This document shows positions 1,061 through 45,106 of a stretch of DNA of 45,106 bases, piece by piece. Each line of letters begins with the position of its first letter. Position 1 is the first letter of the stretch. Under the pieces are notes generated by a model. It made no database searches. It saw only the letters and a program-made list of their open reading frames with translations, and was not told the origin of the DNA. A program made the translations under genes and the position numbers. This DNA comes from a virus (taxonomy: Duplodnaviria > Heunggongvirae > Uroviricota > Caudoviricetes), in the IMG/VR virus record IMGVR_UViG_2541047951_000008. The stretch is one strand, 5' to 3'.

Positions 1061-1188
1061 ATCATGATTGGACGGTGTAAGGACAACACCAAGAAAAACA
1101 GGAAGTTAGCAGTCTCAGCAGGACACCGACCAGACGGTGAGGAGACAAAAAAGGATACGCAAAGGAGCCGCGGCTCCCGAGTGACTTG

Positions 1189-1216
1189 AAAGCCCACAGA
1201 TGTGGGCTTTTTTTCG
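1189..1216 (+). terminator. Rho-independent terminator-like hairpin downstream of ssrA
   Basis: AAAGCCCACA-GAT-TGTGGGCTTT stem-loop followed by a T-run (TTTTTTTCGTTT). Confidence 0.45.
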
Positions 1217-1952
1217 TTTCATCTGCATAAATGGCTATACATCAGCCGCCACACACGTAGCAACAGCTTTAATTGCTTTACCAGCTTCTCTATATCTTAC
1301 TTAGCATATATATCTTTATGTCATAACTAAAAGTTAGGTAACTCATTGATTTAGGTAGTACCGAAAATGGGGACGCCCCTACGATCTTAGCATTACGAAT
1401 TATAAGAATTCGCTTCTAATTCAATGCATTACCCCATCAACACTGCGCTCACACGTCCCACTACATCAAAACATGTAAAGCCTTGCAAGCCATTGTGAGG
1501 CCTTATGTGTCTCAGTTTTGTCCCACTACGACCTGCATAACCAATAAAAAGATAGACGTGATGTCAAACGACGCAGCAGCCTTCTTTTCTTTCACAACTT
1601 CCCCATCCCCAGCATGCATACCTTTCTGCCATAACCGTAGTGAATGTCTGTTATGAGCTGTGAGTTCAACGGGTCAATGCAACGCTATCCTTAATCAAGG
1701 GAAGTCGGTCATCAGTTTGAGGGCTTCAGATGGAAACCTCGAACAAACCCGAGCCCCTACGGCAAATAAAAGAATAAAACTCTGAAAATTTTTGTTTTGT
1801 TGTACAATATTTGTATACCAAGGGAATCTAGCTTTAGATAGTTAAAAAAAATTGACACACTTTGAAATAATATTGTAGATTTATTGTTAAATATTAAATA
1901 AGTACACGTTGCTTCTGTATCAAACCATCAAAAATGTGATCGGAGGGGCTGT

Positions 1953-3995
1953 ATGAGTATTCTCAAGAAAGGAATTATGGAAGATCAACGTTTATTGGCA
2001 TCTGCAGCTCTTTTTCGTCAATTACATGAAAATAAGAAAGATATATACGATGTTTTAGCTCAGTTCCTATGTTCAACTATAGTCATACATCAGTTATGGG
2101 AGTTCGACGTAACTAAGTGCTCTCAGGAACTAAATTCTGACTATGGATTTGATATACCTGAAGCTGTAGTGAAATCATGTCTAAAAAACAGACTCAAGAA
2201 AATAGGTTTGTTGGAATTTAAAAATGGCAAATATTATGTTACTGAAAAATTTGATAGAAACAATAATCTAAAAGCAAGTTACGAGCAAGTAAAGGAAGAA
2301 CAAGACTATATAAAAAACTTGCTCATTCAATTCGTTAAGTCCTTTAGTAAAGAAGAACTTAATCTAGAGCAGATTGAAGAGCTATTATCAGATTTTTATT
2401 CATATTTTATTCATGACAGAAAGCAGAGTGAGAACTCCGTAGTTATCAGTCAGTTCATCATTCAGAATTCAAAAGACCCTCTGTTCACCGATAAGTTAAA
2501 CAAGGTTGAAGAAGGACTAATTCTTTACGGTGGGATCTGTTATAACTCAGACTTAGTGAATGCTGAGCCATGGAGGAATGATTTTCAAATAGTTCTTGAT
2601 ACGGAATTATTATTTGATGCTGTAGGATTAAATGGCGATATTCATTATCGTATGTTTGAAGAATTTCTATTATTAGTCAAGGGGTTACGAGACCGCTCAG
2701 GAAATAAATCAAAAATAGAATTAAAGTACTTTGAAGAAACACAAAGCGAAGTTGAAAGTTACTTTTATGCAGCAGAAAAGATTTTCGAGCGTAATCAACA
2801 TCCAGACCCATCTAAGACTGGAATGATCAATCTACTACAAAGCTGTTCTACAAAATCAGACATCACAATAAAAAAAATAGAGTTTTTTGAAAAACTAGGA
2901 AAAATGAAAATTTCTCTTGATGCTAACACTGATTATTACGATAAGCCGGAGTATAATATTGAAAGCACCTCTACACTTGATAAACTAAAAAGAGAATTCC
3001 CAGATTATGAATTGGATAAAATTGCTGATACTTTAAAAATTTTCACAAAGATAAATTACAAAAGAAAAGGAAGAAGCAATATAAAGTTAGAGCAAACTGG
3101 AGCCCTACTCATCACGGGTAAAAATATAACCAAATCCCTATCACATTACTTTTCTACTCAAGGAGAAAGAACAATACCATTCGCAGCCACTTTAGACTAT
3201 ATAACTGAGAGATTATGGTTTAAGTCTCATAAGGGGTTTGCTAATGGAGTGAAATTACCTACGACTTTTGATGTAGTTGCTAGAGCACAAGTTATTCTTT
3301 CTACACAGGTGGCAGCAAAAGTCGCTAATGTATACAAAGATATGAAAGGTTCTGTCGCGAGTGGAGCCATGTCAAAAGAGACTGCAGCCAACTTGGTTAT
3401 AGAGTTGAGAAGCAAAAATTTACAGCCGGAGGGATTTGTACCGGATCTGGTTGAGGATATCATGAGTTTTATGGATGAAGATGTAATAGAAAATGCACTT
3501 AGGACAAAATCTTTACTCGAAATTCGGGCTAAGCAAGGTATCGAAAGTGAAAAACAAGTTGAGGTTCTTCAGAAAAAACTTGAAGAAATAAGTGCAGACA
3601 AAAATGAACTTGTCATCAAATCGAATCTAGAAAAAGCTGCCACTATAACTGAAGCCCAGGCCTTGGTTAGAAATGTAATAATTCAGACACGAATCCGTGA
3701 GGGTGCAAAATTAAAAAGAAATGCCAAATTAAAATATAAACTCATTCGTTCTGTTTATTTTATGTTATTAGTAACCATACCTGTTTCATTTATTGCGTAT
3801 TTTAATGTCCCGTCGGACACGGTGGTTAGCGTCGCTTCATTAATATCAGGCGTTATTCCTTTGTTCTTCGTTGCTGCCATGTTTAAACCGATAGAAAAAT
3901 TAACTTCTCGGATTGTTATAACGGGGTTCAAAAGAAAAATCAAAAAAAGAAATGAAGTTCATTCTGTTGATAATCTTCTTCTCACTATGCATTAA
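1953..3995 (+). CDS. Hypothetical 680-aa protein: large soluble N-terminal region, coiled-coil-like segment, two predicted C-terminal transmembrane helices; AT-rich cargo gene
   Basis: Long ORF with GGAGG Shine-Dalgarno 6 nt upstream of ATG (cggaggggctgtATG); visibly AT-rich codon usage unlike flanking phage genes; C-terminus LIRSVYFMLLVTIPVSFIAYFNV ... VVSVASLISGVIPLFFVAAMF hydrophobic; no family recognised by eye. Confidence 0.6.
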   Translation: MSILKKGIMEDQRLLASAALFRQLHENKKDIYDVLAQFLCSTIVIHQLWEFDVTKCSQELNSDYGFDIPEAVVKSCLKNRLKKIGLLEFKNGKYYVTEKFDRNNNLKASYEQVKEEQDYIKNLLIQFVKSFSKEELNLEQIEELLSDFYSYFIHDRKQSENSVVISQFIIQNSKDPLFTDKLNKVEEGLILYGGICYNSDLVNAEPWRNDFQIVLDTELLFDAVGLNGDIHYRMFEEFLLLVKGLRDRSGNKSKIELKYFEETQSEVESYFYAAEKIFERNQHPDPSKTGMINLLQSCSTKSDITIKKIEFFEKLGKMKISLDANTDYYDKPEYNIESTSTLDKLKREFPDYELDKIADTLKIFTKINYKRKGRSNIKLEQTGALLITGKNITKSLSHYFSTQGERTIPFAATLDYITERLWFKSHKGFANGVKLPTTFDVVARAQVILSTQVAAKVANVYKDMKGSVASGAMSKETAANLVIELRSKNLQPEGFVPDLVEDIMSFMDEDVIENALRTKSLLEIRAKQGIESEKQVEVLQKKLEEISADKNELVIKSNLEKAATITEAQALVRNVIIQTRIREGAKLKRNAKLKYKLIRSVYFMLLVTIPVSFIAYFNVPSDTVVSVASLISGVIPLFFVAAMFKPIEKLTSRIVITGFKRKIKKRNEVHSVDNLLLTMH

Positions 3996-4341
3996 ATTAT
4001 TGGATTTATGATTTTATGCTAAGGGAGAGGGGCTCCCTTTCAGTAAACTAAACAATCAATTTGCACATTATGCATCGCTTTGTACCCTATTAATTCATAT
4101 CAAATAGTCCAAGTAACTCGACATCAATGATAGAAATAAAAAACTACCGTTTCTGGCACATAGCAGCCCTAGAAATAGTGGCGTGCAGTTATAGATGGTC
4201 GGAAGGAGGTGGTGCAAATTCTCTCATACAAAAAATACGTAAAATCGATAACGGCTGGAAATCATTCAATACTCGCACTATCGGAAGTTCACCAGCCAGC
4301 CGCAGTATTCTGCCATGACAAGTTGCTGCGGCTTTTTATGT

Positions 4342-4629
4342 TTAACGGATAAACAGCCAGACCAGCAGACACGCCACTACCGGCACAGCAAAATCCATCA
4401 GGCTTGCCACATCCCACGCGCGCGGATCAAAACCGCCCCACCACGGCATATTCATACGCTTGCCATGCCCGAACATTTCAATCCAGCGATATTCTGCCTG
4501 GGTATGTTCACGCGCAATGAAGAACGTACAACCGGCTATCGCTCCGTAAGCCCAGTTTCCGGTAAAAAGACCAACCAGTATCTGCGCAGCCACAGCACAA
4601 AGTGCATGAAGTAAGGGGCTTATATCCAT
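4342..4629 (-). CDS. Small hydrophobic (membrane) protein, prophage accessory
   Basis: 95-aa ORF preceded on the minus strand by AGGAGG (gctgaaAGGAGGaaataATG); hydrophobic stretches at both ends; same strand and tight spacing with the upstream phage ORF. Confidence 0.55.
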   Translation of the reverse strand: MDISPLLHALCAVAAQILVGLFTGNWAYGAIAGCTFFIAREHTQAEYRWIEMFGHGKRMNMPWWGGFDPRAWDVASLMDFAVPVVACLLVWLFIR

Positions 4630-4641
4630 TATTTCCTCCTT

Positions 4642-4920
4642 TCAGCTCCATTCCCGAAGCGGTGTTTCCAGCTCCACGACATAATCAGAGAATACAGAAA
4701 CATCAAACAAGTCATCAAGAATGCGAATGTTGACAAAATAACCATCATTCCGGATACAGACAGGTTCTCCCTCTTCTGTTACCCCTGTTTCTGTGTAGGT
4801 GAAACCAATTTCATCAACTAACAGTTTATTCTGGAGGTCTTCATCTTCCGCCCAGCCAAGAGATGACAGGAAGGCCTTAAACTGCAGTTTGTCATGAAAC
4901 TTCAAAGTTAAATCTTTCAT
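4642..4920 (-). CDS. Hypothetical acidic protein downstream of the tail fibre gene
   Basis: 92-aa ORF whose start overlaps the tail fibre stop (4917-4920), suggesting co-translation; function not recognised. Confidence 0.5.
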   Translation of the reverse strand: MKDLTLKFHDKLQFKAFLSSLGWAEDEDLQNKLLVDEIGFTYTETGVTEEGEPVCIRNDGYFVNIRILDDLFDVSVFSDYVVELETPLREWS

Positions 4921-6980
4921 ACGACCTCTTTTAATTGCCTGTCATTTAATTCTTTATGCCATATGCGGAAATTGCGAATATGGCCAAACAGATGTCGTTC
5001 TCCAGTATTCGTCTGCCCTCCAAATCGGATATTTTTATCAGCGGTCACACCATTATATTCACAATAAACTTCATTAACCGCTTTACCATTTGTCACCACA
5101 TGAAAGTGACCATCAGCTTTTGCAATACATCCAAATGTGGTTTTCTCTGCAAATACATCTGTCGCTGCGCTATTAACATACGAGCCTGAAGGGTTTGACA
5201 GACTCATATATAACTTACCACTACCTCTGTTGACTGCTGCAATTGCTGATTGCCCGGTATTGGCTGCTGCTATATCCCACACGCGGGGTGCGGCGTTTGG
5301 TGCAATATCCCAGTTTTTATGAATCTCAAGTAAAAAAGTAAATGGTAACTTATAAAGATTATTTCTGGTGGGGATACTAACCAAATCACTGGCTCTTGTC
5401 GTTGCGCTGCCTCCTGAAATAATAAATGATGATACACACGGCCCATTCTCTACTTGTGGGGTGGCAAGATAAATATAGTCACCAGATACTGTTGCCCCAC
5501 CCTTCTCAGGAGAATACTGTATCTGAGAGCCTATTTTTAACTCACCATCAATTGCCTGAATCGTTGCCTCTGCAAAAATCCAGCCCGTGGTCTTATCCTT
5601 CCTGACTCGTGCCGTAATTCTGCCGGCAGCACCACCTGTCATATTAATTTCAAGCGTTTGCGTATCAATGTACGCATCGCCAAGAAAAGTTGTTGCACTT
5701 CCGTCATATTTATCAAACCGGATTCGCAACCTTACCTGCAGTTCTGTTTTAAAGCGACATGAGGTTGTCACGTATTTATTATCGCCTGAGACATCAACTG
5801 ACTTTGTTGCAGCAATTGATGCCATATTAATAGCCGAAGTTTGCCCAACCAGAGAATCGTTGCAGACAAACTTTCCATAAGTAAAACCAAAACTATCCCT
5901 CCCGGTTTCGGGCACATCCATGTTTGATGACTTCCCCCAGCTGGCTGGACTTTCCGAATTGAGCATGTAGTTCGTTCTTTGTCCCTCAATAAGCAGGCCA
6001 TCACACTCAAATCGCGGCTCATTAATTTCCGCCGTTTTCAGTTCGCCAGATTTGTTGATATATGTTGCCGTTGATGCGCGACTGAAATTAACCTGTTTAT
6101 CACTGGCGACCTGAACCACATCGTCACCAATAGCTATTTTTTTATAGCCCGGAGAAAAACCCGCAATCATATCCAGTGAATCGTTAAACGGTATCCACAC
6201 ATCAGGCAGCGGCGGCACTATATTCGCACAGGGCTCTGCAGTCACTTCCGCTGCGGCTTCTGCGCGGTCTGCCGCCTTTTCAGCTCGTGTCGCTGCCGAC
6301 AGAGCCTCATCCTTTTTCTGCCCGGCCTTTGTTGCGTCTGCTGCAGCCTCCCGCGCTTTTGTGGTGGCGACTCCGGCATTTTCAGCGGCTGACTCTGCAT
6401 TACGGCGGGAAGCCTCTTCACTGTCTGCGGAGGCTTCTTCTGACGCACGGGCATTTGTCTCTGAACGTTCTGCCGCTGTTGCTGCGTTTTGTGCGGCTGT
6501 TTTTGAAGAAGCTGCCGCTTTCGCGCTGTTACCTGCATTCGTCTCTGATGTTTTCGCCGCGTTCCTGGACGATGCCGCTGCTGTTTCTGATTTCTTTGCT
6601 GCCGCTGCGCTCTGAGAGGCGGCTTCAGCGTTGCGTGCCACATCCTCCACCATTTCCTGAAAACGGCGCAATGCCTCCGGCATGACATCATCTTCCGTCA
6701 TGGCACCGAGAAAATCATTCAGCGTCCCCGGACTGGAACCTTCATAGACGGTAATGGTCCCAACATGTGATGGCTGAGAACCCTCAATCCACAGGATGAC
6801 GCTGTACTGACCATACTCAACGTCCATACTGTAACGCCCGGCTTCATCAGGATTTTCAGAGGCCACCGTGTTCACCAGTACCGTGGTGCTGTTACGCTTT
6901 GCCTTCAGTTGAATAGTGCAGTTCTGTATTGGTTTTCCCGCACCATCTTTCAGCACACCTGAGATTTTTACTGCTGCCAT
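4917..6980 (-). CDS. Phage tail fibre protein with Ala-rich low-complexity central region
   Basis: N-terminus MAAVKISGVLKDGAGKPIQNCTIQLKA typical of E. coli lambdoid prophage tail fibres; located after lom; probable ATG at 6980 with GGAGTGG upstream (track ORF extends to 6986 with a GTG codon). Confidence 0.8.
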   Translation of the reverse strand: MAAVKISGVLKDGAGKPIQNCTIQLKAKRNSTTVLVNTVASENPDEAGRYSMDVEYGQYSVILWIEGSQPSHVGTITVYEGSSPGTLNDFLGAMTEDDVMPEALRRFQEMVEDVARNAEAASQSAAAAKKSETAAASSRNAAKTSETNAGNSAKAAASSKTAAQNAATAAERSETNARASEEASADSEEASRRNAESAAENAGVATTKAREAAADATKAGQKKDEALSAATRAEKAADRAEAAAEVTAEPCANIVPPLPDVWIPFNDSLDMIAGFSPGYKKIAIGDDVVQVASDKQVNFSRASTATYINKSGELKTAEINEPRFECDGLLIEGQRTNYMLNSESPASWGKSSNMDVPETGRDSFGFTYGKFVCNDSLVGQTSAINMASIAATKSVDVSGDNKYVTTSCRFKTELQVRLRIRFDKYDGSATTFLGDAYIDTQTLEINMTGGAAGRITARVRKDKTTGWIFAEATIQAIDGELKIGSQIQYSPEKGGATVSGDYIYLATPQVENGPCVSSFIISGGSATTRASDLVSIPTRNNLYKLPFTFLLEIHKNWDIAPNAAPRVWDIAAANTGQSAIAAVNRGSGKLYMSLSNPSGSYVNSAATDVFAEKTTFGCIAKADGHFHVVTNGKAVNEVYCEYNGVTADKNIRFGGQTNTGERHLFGHIRNFRIWHKELNDRQLKEVV

Positions 6981-31356: not shown

Positions 31357-31369
31357 GTAAATTAATTAA

Positions 31370-31399
31370 ATAAAATGGGGAGAATAAATCGACTCCCCA
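31370..31399 (-). terminator. Hairpin between convergent Q and lipoprotein genes
   Basis: TGGGGAG-10 nt loop-CTCCCCA; on the minus strand followed by ATTTTATTTAATT. Confidence 0.35.
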
Positions 31400-31440
31400 C
31401 ACATTAAACTGATTCAATTACCCCCTCAATAAGAGGTCTT

Positions 31441-31806: not shown

Positions 31807-31823
31807 CAACGTTCTCCACAAAA

Positions 31824-32819: not shown

Positions 32820-32820
32820 C

Positions 32821-33630: not shown

Positions 33631-33649
33631 ACTTCGTTTCTCCTCTTAA

Positions 33650-34362: not shown

Positions 34363-35012
34363 GCCGCCATCTCCCTGACAAGTTTTTCTGCCTGCTGGCG
34401 AACCTGCGCCAGAAACGCCTCACCACATGCCTCAAGTTCATCGCGCCCGATGTAGCTGATTGCCGGTCCCTTCCAGGTCTTGTCGAAAACAGCAATAGCA
34501 CCAGCGAAGAAAGCGCCTGTCGGCACCTGCTTCTCATCCTTCGGGATAAACCAGGCAGGCAGTTCAAAACCAATACGCCCGCGAATAAAAGCAATATGGT
34601 CCGCATCTTCCGGCCACCACACTTCGCTGGTGGCAGCTTTGATCAGGAAAACATAGCGCCCGCCCTTATCACGCATGGCACTGGCATGTTTCATGATGTA
34701 ACGCATGCCGGTGATGTATTGCCCCTCATGCTGACTGGCGCGGCTGTATGGGGGATTACCAAAGGCAGCACCTTTAAGCTCCGCAAGACGTTCTGACCAG
34801 TCATGCGCCAGCGCGTTGTCTTCCGCCGTGTAATACGCGGCACATTTGGCGTTATCACCGTCAGTGAACAGATCCAGAACAAACGGACCAAACAAGGTGT
34901 TAATTCCCCAGAAAATGTTGTCCGGCGTGCGCCACTGATCGCCCACTTCCTTCAGTTCATGGGCTGGTTTGTTCCGCAGTTCTACCAGCGCCTGGCAATA
35001 TTTATTACTCAT
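34359..35012 (-). CDS. Phage N6-adenine DNA methyltransferase (small Dam-like)
   Basis: 217 aa with NPPY catalytic motif (AAFGNPPYSRAS); nin-region position typical of lambdoid phage Dam-like MTases. Confidence 0.8.
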   Translation of the reverse strand: MSNKYCQALVELRNKPAHELKEVGDQWRTPDNIFWGINTLFGPFVLDLFTDGDNAKCAAYYTAEDNALAHDWSERLAELKGAAFGNPPYSRASQHEGQYITGMRYIMKHASAMRDKGGRYVFLIKAATSEVWWPEDADHIAFIRGRIGFELPAWFIPKDEKQVPTGAFFAGAIAVFDKTWKGPAISYIGRDELEACGEAFLAQVRQQAEKLVREMAA

Positions 35013-35106
35013 TAAGCCCCCACGTAAAAAGCATCCGCAATGTCTCCGGAAGTACAGCCCGGATGGGCTTCAATGAATTTCTGAACGTCATTTAACAGAC
35101 TCATGA

Positions 35107-36099
35107 TCACCCCCTGAATCCTGCCGGGATCTGGCTGTAGTCCACGTTGTCGTAACTGGCTTTGAAGTACGGGTCTTCACGTTTTTCTGTGTGCGTGCTG
35201 ACGGACGGCGATAAGCGCAGGGAAAGCTCATCCCATTTTTCCCGCAACTTCGACGGGCTGAGCACGTTACGGCACCAGAACGGATCGCGGCTGACGCGGC
35301 TGTACATCTCGCAGATTTGTTTGTGAGTACGACCATCCTGCACACACATCAGGCGAATTTCGTTTGCCCATGCTGTCCAGTTCGGTTCTTTGGGACGAAC
35401 CACCTCGCCGTCACATTCGGCGGCCTGCTCGTACAGGGCGATGATTTTTTTCCAGAGCCACTGTGCGCAGGTCAAATCATCCTGCGTTCCCCACTGGCGC
35501 TTTTTAGGGCTGAATACAACCGCATCAGGATGGCGAGTTAAAAACTCCTGTTCAGCCGTTTGCGTGTCCGGTTGCGAAGCGTCCGGACGAGAAGAGGTTT
35601 TATTCTCTGTAGTAATCTCTGTTGTATTCTCTGTAAGATCATTGGGCCATTTTGACCCGATGACAGCGTGTCGTTTTGAACCAATGGATCGTGTCATTTT
35701 GCGCCCATCCATCAGGTCACTTTGACCCGATGGAGAAGTGCATTTTGACCTGATGGATTCGTTCACTTTGACCTCTTCTAAAAGCTCACTTTCATAGTTG
35801 ATCGTGTAGAAGTTGGTCATGTCACGCTTCGATTTATTGAGTTGCTCGCGACGCAAAACCCCAAGTGATTTCAGGCTTGCAAATGTGCGTTTCAGAGTGG
35901 ACTCTGACCAGAACGGAAACTGCTCCAGCCACTGTTCTGTCGTGTTATAAACCCAGCGAATTCCGCCATGCTCAGTGCCTGAATTCGTTTCATTCAGCCA
36001 GTAATGAAGCTGCTGCAACACAATTGCCTCATTCAGACCAATACGGCATGCAAGATCACGATTTATCACAATGGGCTGGGATGTCATTAACAGGCTCAT
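35107..36099 (-). CDS. Replication initiator (lambda O-like) containing the origin iterons
   Basis: 330 aa downstream of the cro/cII-position genes; iteron array and adjacent AT-rich stretch lie within the coding sequence, as ori-lambda does within O. Confidence 0.65.
   Translation of the reverse strand: MSLLMTSQPIVINRDLACRIGLNEAIVLQQLHYWLNETNSGTEHGGIRWVYNTTEQWLEQFPFWSESTLKRTFASLKSLGVLRREQLNKSKRDMTNFYTINYESELLEEVKVNESIRSKCTSPSGQSDLMDGRKMTRSIGSKRHAVIGSKWPNDLTENTTEITTENKTSSRPDASQPDTQTAEQEFLTRHPDAVVFSPKKRQWGTQDDLTCAQWLWKKIIALYEQAAECDGEVVRPKEPNWTAWANEIRLMCVQDGRTHKQICEMYSRVSRDPFWCRNVLSPSKLREKWDELSLRLSPSVSTHTEKREDPYFKASYDNVDYSQIPAGFRG
35646..35778. repeat. Origin-like iterons (about 5 copies of TTTGACC(C/T)GATGG plus one inverted copy)
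   Basis: cattTTGACCCGATGa, tTTTGAACCAATGG, inverted ATCCATCAGGTCA, cacTTTGACCCGATGG, catTTTGACCTGATGG, cacTTTGACCtc; followed (in the gene direction) by a more AT-rich segment 35580-35640. Confidence 0.6.
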
Positions 36100-36108
36100 G
36101 ACCGACCT

Positions 36109-36447
36109 CTATTTCCCTGAATTTACGACGAAACTGTTCGAGCGGACTGAAGCATTCATGTTCATAGCCTTCACGGAGGTAGATAACCCGTTGTGTTTCC
36201 GGCTCCCAACGAATGACTCTGACGGGCACTCCGTAGTGATCTTTGAACCAGCGGTTAACTTGTCGCAAAGGACTGTCTCCTTCTGCCGGTTGAAATCACC
36301 CACAGCCCACTCTGCAAAGCTGTGGGTTACAATTTCCCTGTCACCTGGTACATTCACTGCATAGCAATACTCCACCTTCGCTTTTCCACCCGGTACAGGA
36401 AGCGCAATCAGTTGCGAGCGACGGTAGTGTGTTGTTAAACTGTTCAT
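36109..36447 (-). CDS. Hypothetical 112-aa protein upstream of the replication gene
   Basis: Start overlaps the stop of the upstream gene (GCATGAAC); ends 7 nt before the O-like start. Confidence 0.45.
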
Positions 36448-37028
36448 GCGTTAGTTTCTCCACAACCAGAAGCAATCGACGCCACGACGCCCGGAGCTGC
36501 ACACTCGCGGGCGTTACTCTTTTCCGGCGCACAAAAAACACGAAATAACAGTGTTAAATGCTCCTGCCACTTCGCCATTACTTGGTAGCTGTTCTCTTCG
36601 ATTTGCTCACGCTCAGCCTGGTCAATAACTCCATCAGCAGTTGCCTTGCGTAAGTACTGGGAATGCTTGCCAATCCATTCTATTGACTCCATCAGCCGCT
36701 GATTAATGTCACCATTGTCAATGTCATCAATGACCACCAGCGGCACAAACACCCCATTACTACGACGGGCTATTGCATCTGTTACATGCCTGGTACCACT
36801 GGCATCCTGTAAAACCATGGCCCACTCAAGTGGAAAAATTTGATCCCCACCGCTACGCAGTCTGTTATGCAATTGATCTTTTGCTGGGGTGATATCATCA
36901 GATTTATACAAACCAAGAATTTCTGCTGCTTCCTCATAGCCATGAGGTAAATCAGCAATCGTTCTTCGTATTGCTGCCACCAGCCATGCTGGTTGTTTAT
37001 CAACTTTCCATTCAGGTTCTTTACCCAC
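36444..37028 (-). CDS. Hypothetical early protein in cII position (CII/YdaT-like regulator possible)
   Basis: 194-aa ORF immediately downstream of cro-like gene; assignment by position only. Confidence 0.35.
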
Positions 37029-37055
37029 GGTTAATTCCTCATTTCTGTGGTGTTT

Positions 37056-37253
37056 TTATGCCGCAGCACTGTTAGTCTTTTGATATAAAGACACGTCAAC
37101 TTTCAGTTTCCCGTTAGTAATTTTTTCTAACTGGTACGCTCGGCCTTCAGGAATAATCTCAGGCCACTCTGAAACAGACGGATGCTTAATACCTAGGGCT
37201 TCGGCGGTTTTACAAACTCCGCCGAAATAATTAATCACGTCGGATTTCCGCAT
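37056..37253 (-). CDS. Cro-like HTH repressor
   Basis: 65 aa, HTH-like GGVCKTAEALGIKHPSVSEW; divergent from cI across an operator-bearing intergenic region. Confidence 0.65.
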   Translation of the reverse strand: MRKSDVINYFGGVCKTAEALGIKHPSVSEWPEIIPEGRAYQLEKITNGKLKVDVSLYQKTNSAAA

Positions 37254-37269
37254 TTCTGTCTCCCGTTAA

Positions 37270-37345
37270 ATTACGTCAAGCAGGAATGTAGGATATCCAA
37301 CATGCCAATGTCAAGAATCCTACATTGGCATGTGGTAGGATTGCC
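37270..37345. promoter_or_regulatory. OR-like operator/promoter region between cro and cI
   Basis: Repeated half-sites ATGTAGGAT / ATCCAACAT (e.g. aATGTAGGATATCCAACATg, ATCCTACAT, GTAGGATtgCCTACAT); on the minus strand TTGACA-17 nt-CTACAT upstream of cro. Confidence 0.5.
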
Positions 37346-37348
37346 TAC

Positions 37349-38002
37349 ATGATGAACATGAGTGATCGTATTCGCCAAAGGCGAAAAGAACTGAACCTGA
37401 CACAACAAGCACTGGCTGATTTGACTGGTGTGAACCGTGTCACGGTTACTGGATGGGAAAAGGACGACTACCAACCAAATGGAGCCAACCTTCAAGCCCT
37501 AGCCAACGCACTTAAATGCGATCCTCTGTGGCTTGTTAGCGGAAAAGGCTCGCCTGAACCAAAGATAAATCTAAAACCTGAAATATTCGCAGTTAAAAAA
37601 GTCCCCCTCATCTCGTGGGTTCAGGCGGGTTCATGGACAATGACGGAGCCTGGTGTCAGGAAAGAAGATGCTGAAGAGTGGGTTTATACTACCGCCCTTG
37701 TATCAGAAATGGCATTTGCACTACGGGTCCGTGGTGATTCAATGACCAATCCCCTCGGCTCACCATCGATACCAGAAGGTTCTATCGTTATCGTAGAGCC
37801 AGATATTATTGATACAGAGTGTATTAACGGAAAAATCGTTGTTGCCCATATCAATGGTGGGCAAGAAGCGACACTCAAAAAATTTGTTGAGGACTGGCCG
37901 AACAGGTATCTCGTCCCACTAAATCCTAACTATAAAACTATTGAATGCGGTGAGAACTGCAGAATAGTTGGTCTTGTCAAACAAGTAATAATGGATTTTT
38001 GA
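37349..38002 (+). CDS. CI-like repressor (HTH_XRE + S24 LexA-like peptidase domain)
   Basis: N-terminal HTH (LNLTQQALADLTGVNRVTVTGWE), C-terminal S24 motifs (VRGDSMTNP ... ATLKKF); start at one of the MMNM Mets (track ORF from 37325 overlaps operators). Confidence 0.85.
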   Translation: MMNMSDRIRQRRKELNLTQQALADLTGVNRVTVTGWEKDDYQPNGANLQALANALKCDPLWLVSGKGSPEPKINLKPEIFAVKKVPLISWVQAGSWTMTEPGVRKEDAEEWVYTTALVSEMAFALRVRGDSMTNPLGSPSIPEGSIVIVEPDIIDTECINGKIVVAHINGGQEATLKKFVEDWPNRYLVPLNPNYKTIECGENCRIVGLVKQVIMDF

Positions 38003-38059
38003 CACATCTTCCTCACTATCGCAAAACCGGGGTATCCCCGGTTTTTTTATGAGCCTATC

Positions 38060-38120
38060 TTTTTATGTAGGATAACCAACATAAACTCTTGACACCTACA
38101 TGTTGGATATCCTACATTTG
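38060..38120. promoter_or_regulatory. OL-like operator/promoter region downstream of cI
   Basis: Same half-site family as OR (tATGTAGGATAACCAACAT; TACATGTTGGATATCCTACAT) with TTGACA at 38090-38095 oriented to transcribe the plus-strand early-left genes. Confidence 0.45.
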
Positions 38121-38459
38121 TTTTTAGAGTTGTGGTGAATGCGCAGGCTGATGCGCGAAAGACATTGCAGCTATTGCGGAAAAGAGCTGTTCGGCGGGGC
38201 AATTAAACGCCCGTGAGAGTCTGAAATAACCGCAAGCCGGAGATCAGCACCGGTCACCACAACAGCCACTGCTTTGGCGGTACCAGTTTGTACACTTGCT
38301 TCCGGCTGGTACCGCTCTTTTTACAAAACAGAGAAGAGCATCACCGGACGACGGGCTCATAACCCAATCCATCCGGGCGGCTGCCACCGCAGGTGTTCTT
38401 CTCTGTTTTGTGGAGAAACTAACCGACCTTGCAGGGTCGATATGATGAGGAGCAGCAAA

Positions 38460-38822
38460 ATGGCTAGCGAACGCAGTACTGATGTGCAGGCATTTATCGG
38501 GGAGCTGGACGGCGGCGTATTTGAAACCAAAATCGGCGCAGTTCTCAGTGAAGTCGCTTCCGGTGTGATGAACACGAAAACCAAAGGTAAGGTCTCACTC
38601 AATCTGGAAATCGAACCGTTTGATGAGAACCGAGTGAAAATCAAACACAAACTCTCATATGTTCGCCCGACTAACCGCGGGAAAATTTCCGAAGAAGACA
38701 CCACCGAAACGCCGATGTATGTCAATCGCGGTGGTCGCCTGACTATTCTGCAGGAAGACCAGGGACAATTACTGACTCTTGCCGGTGAACCTGACGGAAA
38801 ACTCCGCGCAGCAGGTCGTTAA
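38460..38822 (+). CDS. Hypothetical early-left protein (120 aa)
   Basis: GAGGAG RBS 7 nt upstream of ATG at 38460 (MASERSTDVQAFIGELDGG...); track ORF extends upstream to 38274. Size and order resemble the yfdP-yfdT block of CPS-53-type prophages (recalled from memory, not verified). Confidence 0.5.
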   Translation: MASERSTDVQAFIGELDGGVFETKIGAVLSEVASGVMNTKTKGKVSLNLEIEPFDENRVKIKHKLSYVRPTNRGKISEEDTTETPMYVNRGGRLTILQEDQGQLLTLAGEPDGKLRAAGR

Positions 38823-38887
38823 TATCGTTTTTAATAAACTGATTATTTATCTCATCACTGAATATCTTTATATAGTGAGGACTTATT

Positions 38888-39712
38888 ATGTCTCAGAACT
38901 TAGACGCAACCGCAATTAATCAAATCCATGCCCTTATTTCTGCTCAGGGTGTTAATGAAATTATCAGTAAGATTGGTGCCGATGCTGTGGCATTGCCTGA
39001 GAACTTCCGCATTCATGATCTGGAAAAATTTAATTTAAATCGCTTCCGTTTCCGTGGTGCGCTTTCCACTGCCAGCATCGATGACTTTACCCGTTATTCT
39101 AAAGATCTTGCAAATGAAGGCACCCGCTGCTTTATTGATGCCGATAATATGCGTGCCGTCAGTGTGCTTAACCTGGGTACTATTGATGAACCAGGTCACG
39201 CAGATAACACCGCCACTCTCAAACTGAAAAAGACAGCACCGTTCTCTGCTCTGTTGTCTGTTAACGGCGAGCGTAACTCCCAGAAGTCACTGGCAGAATG
39301 GATTGAAGACTGGGCCGACTACCTTGTAGGCTTTGATGCTAATGGTGACGCTATTCAGGCAACAAAAGCGGCTGCGGCTGTCCGTAAAATCACGATTGAA
39401 GCAAACCAGACCGCTGATTTTGAAGATAATGACTTCAGCGGAAAACGCTCCCTGATGGAGTCTGTCGAAGCGAAGACCAAAGATATTATGCCAGTGGCAT
39501 TTGAATTTAAATGCGTTCCGTTTGAAGGTCTGAAAGAACGTCCGTTTAAATTACGCCTCAGCATTATCACTGGCGATCGTCCTGTACTGGTTCTGCGCAT
39601 TATTCAGTTGGAAGCAGTCCAGGAAGAAATGGCTAACGAATTTCGTGATCTGCTTGTTGAGAAATTCAAAGACAGCAAAGTAGAAACCTTTATTGGTACT
39701 TTCACCGCCTGA
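38888..39712 (+). CDS. Hypothetical early-left protein (274 aa; YfdQ-like by size and position)
   Basis: Long [25 protein letters not shown]...; no catalytic motif recognised. Confidence 0.5.
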
Positions 39713-39839
39713 TTTCATTGCTGCAAATGCCCCTGCGGGGGCATTTATGGAAACGTAATTGACTCAACAATCGCCTGATGGCGAGGGCTTCCTTTTACCC
39801 GAATTCAGCGCGGTGCAGCGCATATACGTGGAGAACAAA

Positions 39840-40376
39840 ATGTCATTTATTAAAACTTTTTCCGGGAAGCATTTTTACTATGACAAGATAAATAAAGACG
39901 ACATCGTGATTAACGATATCGCGGTTTCCCTTTCAAATATCTGCCGCTTTGCCGGTCATCTTTCTCACTTCTACAGCGTCGCCCAACATGCGGTGCTTTG
40001 CAGCCAGCTGGTGCCGCAGGAATTTGCTTTTGAAGCGTTAATGCATGATGCAACAGAAGCGTATTGCCAGGACATCCCCGCACCACTGAAACGCCTTCTT
40101 CCTGACTATAAACGGATGGAAGAAAAAATAGACGCAGTAATCCGTGAGAAATACGAGTTGCCCCCGGTTATGAGTACGCCTGTGAAATATGCCGATCTAA
40201 TCATGCTGGCAACCGAACGCCGTGATCTCGGGCTTGATGATGGCTCTTTCTGGCCTGTACTGGAAGGCATCCCGGCAACAGAGATGTTCAACGTGATTCC
40301 ACTGGCACCGGGCCACGCCTACGGGATGTTTATGGAACGTTTTAACGAGTTATCGGAGTTACGCAAATGCGCATGA
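39840..40376 (+). CDS. HD-domain phosphohydrolase (YfdR-like 5-prime-deoxynucleotidase)
   Basis: H...HD motif (AQHAVLCSQLVPQEFAFEALMHDATEAY) and downstream D; start chosen at MSFIKTFSGK giving 178 aa (track ORF from 39759). Confidence 0.65.
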   Translation: MSFIKTFSGKHFYYDKINKDDIVINDIAVSLSNICRFAGHLSHFYSVAQHAVLCSQLVPQEFAFEALMHDATEAYCQDIPAPLKRLLPDYKRMEEKIDAVIREKYELPPVMSTPVKYADLIMLATERRDLGLDDGSFWPVLEGIPATEMFNVIPLAPGHAYGMFMERFNELSELRKCA

Positions 40377-40729
40377 ATGTTTTCGAAATGGAAGGGTTTC
40401 TTCGCGGGAAATGTGTACCGCGAGATCTGAAAGTGAACGAAACAAATGCTGAGTACCTGGTACGTAAATTCGACGCGCTTGAAGCTAAATGTGCGGCACT
40501 GGAAAACAAAATAATACCAGTGTCAGCTGAACTGCCACCAGCAAATGAAAGTGTTCTGTTATTTGATGCTAACGGAGAAGGCTGGCTGATTGGCTGGCGT
40601 TCTCTCTGGTACACCTGGGAACAAAAAGAAACCGGAGAATGGCAGTGGACATTTCAGGTCGGGGACCTTGAAAACGTCAATATCACTCACTGGGCAGTAA
40701 TGCCGAAAGCACCAGAGACTAAGAAATGA
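40367..40729 (+). CDS. Hypothetical early protein (120 aa, DUF551-like C-terminus possible)
   Basis: ORF overlapping the HD-domain gene stop by 10 nt; same operon. Confidence 0.45.
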   Translation: MRMNVFEMEGFLRGKCVPRDLKVNETNAEYLVRKFDALEAKCAALENKIIPVSAELPPANESVLLFDANGEGWLIGWRSLWYTWEQKETGEWQWTFQVGDLENVNITHWAVMPKAPETKK

Positions 40730-40941
40730 GCGTGATAAAAACTCATACAGGAATTGTTATCACCCGAGACGGTGAAAAGCGGATGAAATTACATTCCACT
40801 GAAACGTCCTGGGTTGCCGGACGTTGTGAATCCTACGACAAAAAGACTGGTTACCGTTGGGGTGCACCAAACATGCGTCGCCGTCTGCTACTGGACAGCA
40901 TCAGGCCAATAAAACAGGTAGCAACCAGGGAACAAAATTAA
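40726..40941 (+). CDS. Hypothetical small protein (71 aa)
   Basis: Start overlaps the upstream stop (ATGA); no domain recognised. Confidence 0.35.
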   Translation: MSVIKTHTGIVITRDGEKRMKLHSTETSWVAGRCESYDKKTGYRWGAPNMRRRLLLDSIRPIKQVATREQN

Positions 40942-40988
40942 TTATCAGGACTGGAATTTGATATTACTGCCCGTGTGCAGCGGGCTAA

Positions 40989-41207
40989 GTGGAGAAACAT
41001 ATGCTGAACCTCGATTGCGTTCCAATCTCAACTTATTGCAAAGAAACTGGCGAAACTCCTGAAGCAATAAACAAACGTGTACAGCGCGGTGTTTGGCGTG
41101 AAGGTGTTCAGGTTTTAAAGGTTGAAGGCGTTAAGGAGAGGTGGATTGATCTTAGTGAGGTTGCAAAATGGGCCAGACAAAACTGCTCAAACTACCGCGC
41201 GGCGTAA
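40989..41207 (+). CDS. Excisionase-like small DNA-binding protein
   Basis: 72-aa basic protein directly upstream of and overlapping int; assignment mainly by position and size. Confidence 0.45.
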   Translation: MEKHMLNLDCVPISTYCKETGETPEAINKRVQRGVWREGVQVLKVEGVKERWIDLSEVAKWARQNCSNYRAA

Positions 41208-42334
41208 CAATCAGGAAACACCGCCAGGGCGAAACGATCAATATAACTTTCACCTACAAAGGAGTTAAATGTCGTGAGCCTCTTTCCAATCTGGAAGTAA
41301 CACCAAAGAACATTAAATACGCCGAGCGCACACTCGGCGAAATTCATAATAAGATCGAAAGGGGAACATTCATTTATGCGGAATATTTTCCCCGTTCTGC
41401 TCGTTTGAAAATTTTTGGTAATGCTGCTGCAGGCAAAACGGTAAAAATGTACCTGGACGAATACCTTGAAATCTGCGAAACGAGAAAACTTTCACCCTCT
41501 ACGATTGGTGGTTATAAAAAATGCCGTAGTGCGTTAGCCTCACTCCACATTTGCCCTGCAAGTGAATTAACACCAGCAATCCTGAAAGCGTGGATTCAAA
41601 GCCAGAAAACGACCTTAAAAACAATTCGCAACCAGTTATCTTTCCTGCGGTCAGCACTTGATGAAGCCGTAACCGATGGGGTACTTCAAATTAACCCCGT
41701 ATCGTTGGTAACTGCTTCGCGCTACCAAAGTGATAAGTCAGAAGCAGAAAGCAGCTACGTGGTTGATCCGCTATCACCAGCAGAAGTTGATGCATTACTA
41801 ACAGCAGCCGGAAACAAACAATGGGAGAATCTGTTCCGGTTCGCTATACATACAGGCCTGCGTAGTTCTGAATTATGTGCCCTTCGATGGCGTGATATCG
41901 ACTTTGTTGGAAAAACTGCCCATGTCCAGAGCGCAAGTGTTGTCGGTGTTATCAAAGGAACAAAGACAAAAGCCGGTACTCGTAAAGTTGAACTGACAGA
42001 AGATGCAATGTTGGCGCTGATAAATCAGAAGCCATTTACATTCATGAAGGATGCTACTGTCTTTGAAGATCCAAAGACCAATAAGCCCTGGGCAAGTGCT
42101 GATGCAATCAGGAAAAAAGCATGGGTGCCAACATTGCGAAAAGCAGGTATTCGTTACAGAAATCCATATCAAACCAGGCATACATTCGCCACCCGCCATA
42201 TCAGCCGGGGAGCAAACCTGTTTTGGCTTGCAGCTCAAATGGGGCATAAAGGGCCGGAGATGCTTTTCAGGCACTATGGCTCATATCTGAAGGAATATGA
42301 TGGACAAACAAGCTTGAAGAAGATAACAATATAA
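41168..42334 (+). CDS. int: Tyrosine site-specific integrase
   Basis: 388 aa with N-terminal arm-binding-like region and C-terminal catalytic motifs (HTGLRSSELCALRWRDID ... RHTFATRHISRGANLFWLAAQMGH ... FRHYGSYL with catalytic Tyr). Confidence 0.9.
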   Translation: MGQTKLLKLPRGVTIRKHRQGETINITFTYKGVKCREPLSNLEVTPKNIKYAERTLGEIHNKIERGTFIYAEYFPRSARLKIFGNAAAGKTVKMYLDEYLEICETRKLSPSTIGGYKKCRSALASLHICPASELTPAILKAWIQSQKTTLKTIRNQLSFLRSALDEAVTDGVLQINPVSLVTASRYQSDKSEAESSYVVDPLSPAEVDALLTAAGNKQWENLFRFAIHTGLRSSELCALRWRDIDFVGKTAHVQSASVVGVIKGTKTKAGTRKVELTEDAMLALINQKPFTFMKDATVFEDPKTNKPWASADAIRKKAWVPTLRKAGIRYRNPYQTRHTFATRHISRGANLFWLAAQMGHKGPEMLFRHYGSYLKEYDGQTSLKKITI

Positions 42335-42351
42335 TCCAAGCATGAAACTAT

Positions 42352-42375
42352 TGGCCACAATTTGTGGCCATTTTA
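42352..42375 (+). terminator. Hairpin plus T-run immediately after int
   Basis: TGGCCAC-AATTT-GTGGCCA followed by TTTTA; lies inside the 5-prime extension of the track ORF for the next gene, arguing that gene starts at 42393. Confidence 0.4.
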
Positions 42376-42392
42376 CGGAGCAAGATAGAAAC

Positions 42393-44126
42393 ATGGCAAA
42401 TCAAATTACCAAACTAAAAAATATAAATGTTGTGAAGTTTCGCGGACTGAAAAATATAAACATCGAGTTTGGTTCTCGCCTAACTGTTATTTGTGGTAAA
42501 AATGGCACATCTAAATCCACAATTCTTGGCATTATCGCCCAAATATTTAGCTTTACAAAGGACTTTACCAAAAACCCTGAGACTGATTTAACACAATATA
42601 AAACATTAACAAATGGCAGCTTCAAGTCAGCTTTCAGCGAACATTTTAGGCTTTCAGAACAATTTGATGTTCCTGGTTCAATGGACGTCAAAATTAGTGT
42701 CTATGATGGTGCATCGAACAAACATCTTGAAAAACTAACATTAGGTTTATACAGCTACAGTGACAGAGATAAATCTAGGCCTGTAGTCAGGGGAAATGAT
42801 TCAATACCGGAAAAAAACCAAAGTAGAAACGTTACTCATCCTGTTATTTTTTTAAGCTTAGCACGACTTCTTCCTATTACATTAAGGACTGATTACTCAA
42901 CACGGGATGTTCAGTACATCAATGAAAATTCTGATGAAATCAGAATGATGAGTAACCAACTCTTACTAAAAAACAATGGAAGCTCAGTAACAGCAACAAA
43001 AGGTACTATCGATTCAATGGTTGTCCATGGTGACAATTATGATCACCAATCAGTATCTGTTGGTGAAGATAATGTTGGACAATTAATCCAGGCAATTTTT
43101 TCATTTAAAAGATTGAAGGAAACTTATTCTGATTATCATGGCGGAATATTGTTAATTGATGAAGCCGATGCAGGTCTTTTCCCTGCGGCACAGTTAGAGC
43201 TAATTAATATTCTAACTAAAGCAGCAAAACAATACGATCTGCAAATAATCATGACCTCGCACTCTCCATTAATAATAGAGGATATCTATAATCGTTCAAA
43301 ACAAGATAGTGATAGCTTTAAAACAATATATCTTACAGACACATATGGAGATATTAAAACAAAGAATAATCTTTCATGGACAGATATCCACGCTGATTTA
43401 CATGTTGAAACTGTAAAAATTAATGATGACATTTGTCTTCCAAAGGCAAATGTATATTTTGAAGACAAAGAAGGTTTCGACTTTTTCAAACAATTGATAA
43501 CAGATCGAAAAATAAATAAAATATTAAATCCATTAGGAAATATAAATATTAGCTGCTCTGCCATGCTTGACTTAATGGCAAGAAAAATACCAGAATTTAC
43601 AGCTAAAAGCTTGATCGTCTTAGACGGTGATGTTGTTCACGACAACAGTGCTAATGCAAAAAAAGCCAAAAAAGAAAAAAACTTATGTTTGCTTCCAAGC
43701 ACCTTACCTCCAGACCAAATGATTTTTGAGTTTTTATATAATTTACCACCTGATGATGCATATTGGGAAAATAAAAATAAATTTACAAAAGCTGTTTTTA
43801 TGAAAACAGCTAAAGACATAATTGCAACGCTAAAGATTGGTAACGCTCCGATTGATTTAAAAATCCTTATAGATAATTATAAAAAAGTTAACAAAAACCA
43901 TGGAGGGAGAGTTAGAAAACTGTTTAAAGATTTTGCACATACGACTCAATTTCAGGCCCAAGTCAAAGGAAGAGTTAAAGATAACCCATATCGATATTGG
44001 GTCGAGAAAAATCCTGTTCAATCGGATAGCTTCAAGAATGAACTAATAAAGAGTCTTAAAGTTATTATGATAAGTGGACATGGTGTCGATTCTGCTACCA
44101 TCTCATCATATCTGTCAGATAACTAA
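42393..44126 (+). CDS. OLD-family / GajA-like protein: N-terminal ABC ATPase with C-terminal Toprim-like domain; AT-rich cargo
   Basis: Walker A GKNGTSKST, Walker B ILLIDEADAGLFP, H-loop IIMTSHSPLI; C-terminal region with conserved Glu (VYFEDKEGFDF) and DxD (IVLDGDVV) as in Toprim domains of OLD/GajA nucleases; start taken at MANQITKLKNI. Confidence 0.7.
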   Translation: MANQITKLKNINVVKFRGLKNINIEFGSRLTVICGKNGTSKSTILGIIAQIFSFTKDFTKNPETDLTQYKTLTNGSFKSAFSEHFRLSEQFDVPGSMDVKISVYDGASNKHLEKLTLGLYSYSDRDKSRPVVRGNDSIPEKNQSRNVTHPVIFLSLARLLPITLRTDYSTRDVQYINENSDEIRMMSNQLLLKNNGSSVTATKGTIDSMVVHGDNYDHQSVSVGEDNVGQLIQAIFSFKRLKETYSDYHGGILLIDEADAGLFPAAQLELINILTKAAKQYDLQIIMTSHSPLIIEDIYNRSKQDSDSFKTIYLTDTYGDIKTKNNLSWTDIHADLHVETVKINDDICLPKANVYFEDKEGFDFFKQLITDRKINKILNPLGNINISCSAMLDLMARKIPEFTAKSLIVLDGDVVHDNSANAKKAKKEKNLCLLPSTLPPDQMIFEFLYNLPPDDAYWENKNKFTKAVFMKTAKDIIATLKIGNAPIDLKILIDNYKKVNKNHGGRVRKLFKDFAHTTQFQAQVKGRVKDNPYRYWVEKNPVQSDSFKNELIKSLKVIMISGHGVDSATISSYLSDN

Positions 44127-44136
44127 TTGATTAAAA

Positions 44137-44172
44137 AAGGGTTTTATGTGATGGCCATAAAGCCCTTTTTTT
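44137..44172 (+). terminator. Rho-independent terminator after the ATPase gene
   Basis: AAGGGTTTTATG-loop-CATAAAGCCCTT (one G-U pair) followed by TTTTTTT. Confidence 0.5.
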
Positions 44173-44206
44173 GATATACTTTAGATCTGACATTTAGAGG
44201 TATCAT

Positions 44207-45106
44207 ATGCGTTTTAACACCCCACTTCGCTATCCTGGCGGTAAAGGCAAGCTTGCAAATTTCATGCTTCGGATTATTGAAGAAAATAATCTTTCGCCTA
44301 TACATTATGCCGAACCATATGCTGGGGGTGCTGGTTTAGCATTGAAACTGTTACATCTAAATGCAGCTGAAAAAATCATCCTTAATGATATTAATATTTC
44401 TGTTTATGCTTTTTGGCACAGTGTATTAAATCATGCAGATCAATTATGTTCTTTAATTGAAAGAACAGAAGTTACAATGGATGAATGGTTTAGGCAGAAA
44501 GATATAATTAATAATCCTAAAGACCATGATCTTTTAACAATTGGTTTCTCAACCTTTTTTCTCAATAGAACAAATCGTTCTGGAATATTAAAAGGTGGAG
44601 TAATTGGCGGTAAAAATCAAGAAGGGAAATGGAAGCTTGACGCTCGCTATAATAAGAGTGATTTGATTTCTCGAATCCATAAAATATCAGAAAATCGTCA
44701 CAGAATAGATTTATATAACATGGATGCAATTGATTTCATTAAAAAAATAGTTACTCAATTGCCACAAAACTCATTAACATATTTGGATCCACCTTATTAC
44801 ATAAAAGGTAAAGGTTTATATATCAACCATTATGATCATGATGATCATGTTAGGGTTGCAAAAGTCGTACAGAATAATATTAAAACACCTTGGATTGTTT
44901 CTTACGATAACACTCCTGAGATCCAAGCTATGTATAAGACATCATCATTAGTATATGGAATAAACTACAGTGCTCAAGATCGGTACAAAGGATCTGAGGT
45001 AATGTTCTTCAGTGAACGATTGAAAATCTTTAAAACAGATGATCCAACTAAGGTAAAAGCGCCTGTATTTAAAAGAGGATGTGTTGACGACCACATCCAG
45101 ACATAA
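44207..45106 (+). CDS. Dam-family (D12 / alpha-class) N6-adenine DNA methyltransferase
   Basis: N-terminal RYPGGKGK and motif I EPYAGGAG, C-terminal motif IV YLDPPYY (order I...IV as in Dam/T4 Dam); GAGG RBS; AT-rich; ORF ends at the window edge. Confidence 0.85.
   Translation: MRFNTPLRYPGGKGKLANFMLRIIEENNLSPIHYAEPYAGGAGLALKLLHLNAAEKIILNDINISVYAFWHSVLNHADQLCSLIERTEVTMDEWFRQKDIINNPKDHDLLTIGFSTFFLNRTNRSGILKGGVIGGKNQEGKWKLDARYNKSDLISRIHKISENRHRIDLYNMDAIDFIKKIVTQLPQNSLTYLDPPYYIKGKGLYINHYDHDDHVRVAKVVQNNIKTPWIVSYDNTPEIQAMYKTSSLVYGINYSAQDRYKGSEVMFFSERLKIFKTDDPTKVKAPVFKRGCVDDHIQT

Follow-up and report, generated by a model that had tools for sequence, protein, structure and literature searches.

The existence of prophage defense hotspots and of phages that target tRNA and tmRNA genes is well established. 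Here, we analyzed a stretch of 45,106 nt from a virus of the class Caudoviricetes (IMG/VR record IMGVR_UViG_2541047951_000008), referred to as the window in its full length, which carries a lambdoid prophage beside the E. coli tmRNA gene ssrA. Its closest described relatives are the Citrobacter rodentium phage phiNP (OR565852.1) and the Escherichia phage LLS (PQ299149.1). PhiNP excises precisely, forms virions and lysogenizes Escherichia coli K-12 at the 25-bp 3' end of ssrA (Petty 2011, PMC3072379; Magaziner 2019, PMC6456863), and Int/Xis-dependent integration and excision at this site have been shown experimentally only for this phage (PMC3072379, PMC6456863). LLS was isolated as a free phage; its virion genome has the order xis, int, one 271-amino acid (aa) cargo gene, tmRNA pseudogene/attP, a copy of the trailer that follows ssrA, further cargo and tail fibers (PMC12315714), thus in this group a gene between int and attP belongs to the packaged genome. 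The CP4-57/P4-type IntA elements are likewise directed at this 3' end of ssrA, and some genomes have them in tandem with phages of this type. Yet, their integrase is unrelated (17% identity to LLS Int; PMC12315714) and adjoins ssrA, while in the window int is positioned at the far end.

We found that phiNP matches window positions 40969–45064 at 85% nucleotide identity, and that the encoded proteins are 93.3% (Int), 93% (Xis), 87% (ATPase) and 88% (methylase, unannotated in the phiNP record) identical. The phiNP record starts and ends with the core GGTTCAACTCCCGCCAGCTCCACCA and retains the order int, ATPase, methylase, about 110 nt and core, with int at the ssrA-distal end and a homologous P' trailer equipped with a terminator. 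In contrast to the window, which encodes lambda-like siphovirus tail genes, phiNP has the contractile tail of a myovirus, along with different structural and left-cargo genes. LLS resembles the window in its lambdoid organization, heads with a protease-capsid fusion, a yfdP/Q/R early-left operon without a Rec module, a high density of Chi sites (23 in LLS vs 17 in the window) and an integrase of 86.9% identity, but differs in its cargo gene, which encodes a 271-aa membrane protein, and in possessing an invertible tail-fiber module.

Based on this comparison and on the junctions described below, we are confident that the window contains one lambdoid prophage with an integrase of the phiNP/LLS type, inserted at the 3' end of ssrA, and that the cassette of ATPase and methyltransferase genes downstream of int lies inside the prophage, between int and attR. 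A previous sequence-only reading of this DNA had recognized a lambdoid prophage next to ssrA with int at its distal end, and ARAGORN and Rfam detection of the tmRNA gene together with the annotation bear this out (Table 1). The same reading had left the position of the cassette undecided between the interior of the prophage, with the att site past the end of the window, and several elements integrated in tandem. It is the former option that is borne out by the core found in the near-identical genome of E. coli MS21324, by all related loci that extend far enough and by the order of genes in phiNP, whereas the window itself, with one integrase and no internal copy of the core, speaks against the latter.

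At the left junction ssrA is intact, with ANDENYALAA as its tag peptide (ARAGORN), and in the Rfam scan of the whole window the tmRNA was the sole RNA family found. The attL site consists of the 25-bp core that ends the gene, and the phage P' arm follows directly. In the empty-site strain ECONIH2, ssrA is immediately followed by a 153-nt trailer, a terminator and glaH. A five-way alignment showed that MS21324 and an ST131 prophage both have this trailer allele at their right junctions, while the allele behind ssrA in the window is distinct and shared with the left junction of the ST131 prophage. The latter allele (1061–1213) is found in virion DNA of the free phage LLS and in phiNP as well. 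Since it is shared with the ST131 left junction, LLS and phiNP, and the empty site carries the other allele, positions 1061–1213 are phage DNA.

The right junction was read in MS21324, which shares 99.77% identity with the full length of the window (100 mismatches, 3 gaps). There, the methylase stop codon is followed by approximately 80 nt, then by CGGGTTCAACTCCCGCCAGC-CAATCATGATTGG, about 150 nt of trailer, a terminator and glaH, and these post-core 150 nt align at around 88% with window positions 1061–1213. This second copy of the core (L001 45188–45205; L numbers refer to the loci compared) lies about 81 nt beyond the window end, and the attR core is located 2845–2852 nt after the int stop codon in all 17 loci with this cassette. 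Judging from the near-identical strain and from these 17 loci, attR in this exact genome should with high probability be found some 81 nt past the end of the window, before glaH. The sequence-only reading had proposed a comparison of strains at ssrA and a search beyond position 45106; ECONIH2 supplied the native trailer allele and MS21324 the second core. Within the window, searches with the 25-mer (up to 3 mismatches) and a 15-mer (up to 2 mismatches) matched 1036–1060 alone, in agreement with the earlier remark that no duplicated tmRNA 3' segment could be seen, and a comparison of 1061–4700 with 40901–45106 gave no direct repeat longer than 12 nt, i.e., nothing above chance. An att site immediately after int was considered and rejected, as the window has no core-like sequence there and relatives diverge at this point rather than being conserved.

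In the mechanism that we propose, the phage attP would carry a 25–29-bp copy of the ssrA 3' end, and we infer that the Int crossover takes place inside this core. The left junction would then rebuild an intact ssrA with its trailer and terminator supplied by the phage P' arm, and the right junction (attR) would be composed of a P arm of about 80 nt, the core and the displaced native trailer in front of glaH. The circular phage genome would accordingly have the order int, cargo, P arm, core, P' arm, cargo and tail fibers; therefore, the two cargo blocks at the prophage termini would represent one accessory region split by attP. For the DNA past position 45106 the model leads us to expect about 80 nt beginning with AAGGAGCCGCAAAAGATCCGC, then (C)GGGTTCAACTCCCGCCAGC(TCCAC)CA, and then the native trailer allele (GACTACACCAAC...GGAGTCGCGACTCC...). 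Thus, what looks like an odd layout would be the standard biology of a known integrase type, which permits correct annotation of the locus: the cargo is part of the phage and will travel along with it, and the phage exchanges the trailer and terminator of ssrA, an RNA gene of an essential pathway, for its own conserved copy.

The P arm could be delimited by comparing 18 cassette clusters, all of which keep a pair of repeats before the core. Two tandem 11-nt repeats (AAAGGnTaCGC and AAAAGnnnCGC) occupy about −80 to −58 within the last 80 nt or so in front of the core, which also share a few A/T positions and a GGAC.CG motif directly adjoining the core. In L001, a degenerate 22-nt pattern of these repeats is matched exactly nowhere but in P' and P, with 0.01 expected by chance, and the native trailer contains a copy with one mismatch. 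In view of the arm-binding domain of the integrase, we regard the tandem repeats of P and P' as candidate arm-type Int binding sites.

Several points weigh against the proposed anatomy. The attR site is not inside the window and was read in near-identical and related genomes; the P arm is weakly conserved; the arm-type sites were deduced from a pattern derived from the same P and P' sequences on which it was scored; and in MS21324 (L001 45188–45212) and four other loci the attR core is devoid of 5 nt (TCCAC). This shortened core is seen in MS21324, in APEC O1 and in three IMG/VR loci (L002, L046, L066 and L073 besides L001), which have differing cassettes, while elsewhere the full 25 bp is retained. 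Given the loss of TCCAC, these prophages may no longer be able to excise.

Folding of the ssrA trailer gives four hairpins, with the terminator in final position (1061–1213 and the trailers in L005, L003, L006, L007, L008, L033, L052 and L073). Among nine native and phage trailer alleles, one compensatory base-pair change was observed per hairpin, which suggests that the phage preserves a structured trailer, whether as RNA or DNA. Further downstream, the segment 1338–1658 shows approximately 89% identity to the attP/terminator stretch between int and gtrA in the Shigella phages SfII, SfV and SfIV, and around 83% to sequence close to attP in phage 21 and in lambda-like phages. It has the appearance of a remnant left by another integration module next to the ssrA-type P' arm.

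The only integrase of the window is encoded on the plus strand, so that int is transcribed away from ssrA as had been stated from the sequence. It shows the Phage_integrase (PF00589, 3.4e-16) and Arm-DNA-bind_2 (PF12167, 5e-23) domains. The earlier description of a terminator-like hairpin and an ATPase start close behind int also proved accurate: the hairpin is a weak element which a strict terminator scan did not call, the ATPase open reading frame (ORF) opens 8 nt past the int stop codon, and the start common to homologues (42393) lies 58 nt past it. Similarly, we can account for the observation that no attP-sized gap is visible after int, since the cassette has moved the P arm of about 80 nt some 2.85 kb away from int. 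In the cargo-free locus L062, the int stop codon is joined directly to the 80 nt which, in MS21324, come after the methylase stop.

Comparison of related loci revealed that the interval between int and the P arm is variable. Among 5426 complete E. coli genomes, 533 possess a homologous int and 84 have int together with this cassette. In the other carriers the similarity ends at window positions ~42301–42320, within the last ten or so codons of int; in relatives, it stops about 30 nt before the int stop codon and resumes around 80 nt before the core. The slot is occupied by three genes, one of them STAS-like, in APEC O1, by a gene for a 259-aa membrane protein in ST131 strain 4993, and by AAA ATPase and RloB genes in W619, each time with the ssrA core after the cargo. 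A scan of IMG/VR with the integrase yielded 80 loci of 91–100% protein identity, 55 of which extend far enough to be informative. The core was detected downstream of int in all 55 as well as in six reference loci, and never between int and cargo in any related locus reaching that far. The distances from int stop to core are discrete (80, ~860–900, ~1450, 1635, ~2020–2047, ~2270, ~2450 and ~2850 nt), and the cassettes form 18 sequence clusters of about ten gene-content classes with 31–41% GC. Recognizable among them are AbiLi/AbiLii, DarT1 with a NADAR antitoxin, a DUF4760 protein and a HATPase-like/STAS pair, while for most cassettes no match was found.

The slot is a fixed site between conserved phage genes that is filled by many alternative low-GC cassettes, some of which are known defense systems (AbiL, DarTG). 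It spans from the last ~10 codons of int to the P arm, and its cassette varies from phage to phage. Exchange most likely proceeds through homologous recombination in the conserved flanks, with int on one side and the P arm/core/trailer block on the other. In a limited literature search, no specific description of this int-attP slot was found. It is possible, although we would place it slightly below an even chance, that the interval constitutes an undescribed hotspot of defense cassettes and that both the ATPase-methylase pair and the left-cargo protein presented below are new anti-phage systems. Being compact and bounded by the int 3' end and the ~80-nt P arm, the slot is easy to mine for the candidate defense genes that accumulate there. 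Behind the attR core, many genomes have foreign P' arms (AAAATTCTCC..., CTTTTTAGT..., AAATATTGAT...) in place of the native trailer, and W619 (L004 7739–9140) has a second integrase; thus, tandem arrays of different ssrA-targeting elements are common downstream of this phage type.

With such arrays around, one could suppose that the prophage ends directly after int and that the ATPase and methylase genes belong to a second, integrase-less element or an island remnant, placed between the prophage and another att site. The second integrase of W619, the foreign P' arms of many IMG/VR loci, and the hairpin and sharp GC drop behind int, which resemble a boundary, could all be read in this manner. 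We nevertheless judge such an arrangement very improbable, as no core-like sequence separates int from the ATPase gene and, where tandems do exist, the extra core follows the cargo instead of preceding it. Moreover, the att sites of phiNP, which have been defined by experiment, enclose the same cassette, int and attP are separated by a gene in the free phage LLS, and the cargo-free L062 uses the very P arm that follows the methylase gene here.

The similarly low GC of the two cargo blocks (32–35%) and their rarity in E. coli, with at least 80% of 1061–4950 covered in only 3 of the 5426 genomes and the right cassette present in the 84 mentioned above, might alternatively indicate that the phage inserted into a pre-existing low-GC island through an att site unrelated to ssrA. 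This scenario appears less probable still: no direct repeat links 4000–4340 with 42335–42400, the DNA between ssrA and the left-cargo gene is of phage type (the P' allele and lambdoid att-adjacent sequences), the integrase is of an ssrA-specific type, the right cassette travels with int in phiNP, and none of the 5426 genomes joins the left-cargo gene to the ATPase-methylase pair without the prophage. We give least credence to the capture of the cassette as host DNA from the attR side by aberrant excision, in the manner of a specialized-transducing phage. The P' arm is homologous to host DNA beside ssrA, so the lineage must have captured flanking DNA at some time, but the cassette is found inward of the P arm and core, toward the phage, and the native DNA past the core comprises the trailer and glaH in ECONIH2. 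In addition, the cassette is much poorer in GC than the E. coli core genome, and the same gene pair occupies unrelated prophage positions in Yersinia and Pseudomonas. A single prophage containing the cassette between int and attR hence remains the reading that we adopt.

As for the right cargo itself, the first gene encodes a protein with AAA_15 (3.8e-15) and AAA_21 (4.1e-12) Pfam matches, whose Walker A (GKNGTSKS) and Walker B (LLIDE) motifs are invariant in homologues. Its C-terminal 274 residues (321–594) gave no Pfam match. In this part, 49 homologues show no variation at E357/D358 and D411/D413, which is the pattern expected of a Toprim E...DxD center. The AlphaFold2 (AF2) model has a predicted local distance difference test (pLDDT) score of 88.8; its best full-length Foldseek matches are the Thermus OLD nuclease 6p74 (4e-12) and Gabija GajA, and the best PADLOC matches are PtuA, AriA, GajA and ATPase-Toprim models. 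The second gene encodes a D12-class methylase (MethyltransfD12, 1.8e-19) recognized by the PADLOC model PD-Lambda-5_B (PDLC04018) at 2e-124 over positions 1–282 of 291.

PD-lambda-5 was validated as broadly protective and described as a compact two-gene prophage system of restriction-modification plus abortive infection-like type, the host used for cloning being one that lacked the mrr region (Vassallo 2022, PMC9519451), with components listed as "ParB/HEPN, methyltransferase" (PMC9519451). While the methylase of the window matches PD-Lambda-5_B over its full length, its partner is an OLD-like ATPase with a putative Toprim part, and PD-Lambda-5_A is not among the best 25 PADLOC matches of the latter. 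The cassette is therefore not PD-lambda-5 but a relative in which the same type of methylase is combined with a different putative effector. The OLD-like ATPase and D12 methylase genes are adjacent, down to 52–55% identity, in Yersinia and Pseudomonas aeruginosa prophages (L091–L096), where they are located between Q and holin genes (Yersinia) or adjoin an S24 repressor gene (P. aeruginosa), which fits a mobile two-gene unit. We lean slightly toward the view that the pair functions as a restriction-modification-like anti-phage module, in which the methylase would mark self DNA and the OLD-type nuclease would attack unmarked invaders. Less favorable to this assignment are the Foldseek template-modeling (TM) scores of the ATPase against OLD structures, which are low (~0.32) despite the value of 4e-12, and the fact that the ATPase does not correspond to the described ParB/HEPN partner of PD-lambda-5.

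The left cargo gene encodes a 680-aa protein for which no match was found in Pfam, PADLOC, NCBIfam or among PDB sequences. Its family pools 87 homologues of 620–700 aa from Gammaproteobacteria, including members encoded at the end of a P4-type island (Serratia) and within the cargo of a Tn7-like element (Aeromonas). The structural model (pLDDT 84) includes a helix of ~100 residues and C-terminal membrane helices, and a role as a single-gene abortive-infection or exclusion effector seems plausible. The corresponding position is occupied by a type II restriction-modification pair with a GIY-YIG gene in ST131 strain 4993, and by DinI-like, HicAB and acetyltransferase genes in phiNP. In three unrelated contexts the gene and its homologues are preceded by 0.7–1.5 kb in which no gene was called (1214–1952; L097 4509–6000; L098 4934–6000); Rfam finds nothing in the window copy of this stretch. 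What is new at this locus is modest, namely the slot, which we did not find described, the pair of OLD-like and Dam-like proteins, whose link to PD-lambda-5 is through the methylase alone, and an uncharacterized protein predicted to combine winged-helix, PIN-like and membrane parts; conceptually, nothing is new.

Table 1. Features of the window, with coordinates and the evidence for each assignment.
Feature	Position	Strand	Evidence or remark
smpB	1–483	+	Chromosomal flank gene; RefSeq annotation of MS21324
ssrA (tmRNA), intact	698–1060	+	ARAGORN; Rfam RF00023, 295.8 bits, full length
attL core GGTTCAACTCCCGCCAGCTCCACCA, last 25 bp of ssrA	1036–1060	+	25-bp sequence mapped as attP/attB of phiNP (PMC6456863, PMC3072379)
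P' arm, phage-borne diverged copy of the ssrA trailer	1061–1213	+	~88% identical to native trailer; own terminator at 1188–1211
Tandem 11-nt repeats AAAGGATACGC-AAAGGAGCCGC, candidate arm-type Int sites	1150–1171	+	Matching P-arm pair starts at the last base of the window
Putative non-coding relic	1338–1658		Resembles att-adjacent DNA of other lambdoid phages
Left cargo, 680-aa protein (predicted winged helix, putative PIN-like domain, coiled coil, membrane helices at the C terminus)	1953–3995	+	32% GC
Late structural block: two small ORFs, side tail fiber, lom, J to tape measure, tail, head, portal, terminase	4342–26316	−	RefSeq annotation, ORFs
Lysis genes, two DNA methyltransferases, Q antiterminator, nin-like genes, RusA, replication/early-right genes	27394–37028	−	RefSeq annotation
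Immunity region: Cro-like gene (37056–37253) and LexA/cI-like repressor (37349–38002)	37056–38002	− (Cro-like), + (repressor)	RefSeq annotation
Early-left operon: yfdP, yfdQ, yfdR and small ORFs	38460–40941	+	Type found in LLS, phiNP and ST64B (PMC12315714)
Excisionase	41001–41207	+	Overlaps int start; 92.6% identical to annotated phiNP xis, 88% to LLS xis
Tyrosine integrase with N-terminal arm-binding domain, ssrA-specific phiNP/LLS type	41168–42334	+	Pfam and homology
8-bp hairpin after int, weak terminator-like element	42352–42370	+	z = −2.2; U-tract with 4 U
Right cargo gene 1: putative OLD-family (ABC ATPase + Toprim-like) protein	42393–44126	+	Pfam, motifs, AF2, Foldseek
Right cargo gene 2: D12-class N6-adenine DNA methyltransferase, PD-lambda-5_B-like	44207–45106	+	Window ends at its stop codon

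For the phage body, gene calls were those of the RefSeq annotation of MS21324. It comprises a complete lambdoid gene set from ~4.3 to 42.3 kb, and annotation and ORF map together show the lambda-like order of int-xis, early left, cI/cro, replication, nin, Q, lysis, terminase, head, tail, J, lom and stf genes. The head genes include a ClpP-protease/capsid fusion on the minus strand. The GC content of the body is ~52–55%, compared with 32–35% for the cargo at both prophage ends, and the claim that cargo resides at both termini holds accordingly.

Three fragmentary genes are annotated by RefSeq in the near-identical genome: a piece of a capsid-protein gene adjoining the left cargo (4233–4307), a truncated HNH endonuclease gene upstream of the terminase genes (26685–26834) and a truncated hypothetical gene (35027–35110). 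Neither the lambda nor the LLS/mEp213 cos 12-mer is present in the window. Chi (GCTGGTGG) occurs at 17 sites across 22169–40535, 14 of them on the minus strand, and no exo, bet or gam genes are annotated, which matches the class with high Chi content and no Rec module described for LLS (PMC12315714). Apart from the cargo methylase, the phage body encodes two further DNA methyltransferases (29233–30285 and 34359–35012, both on the minus strand), one of which is an N6-adenine enzyme. Between Q and a DNA methyltransferase gene, an ORF of 148 aa (30910–31356, plus strand) runs antisense to the late operon and gave no match in Pfam or PADLOC. ST131 strain 4993 has two different hypothetical genes at this position, and the site is probably another variable moron slot.

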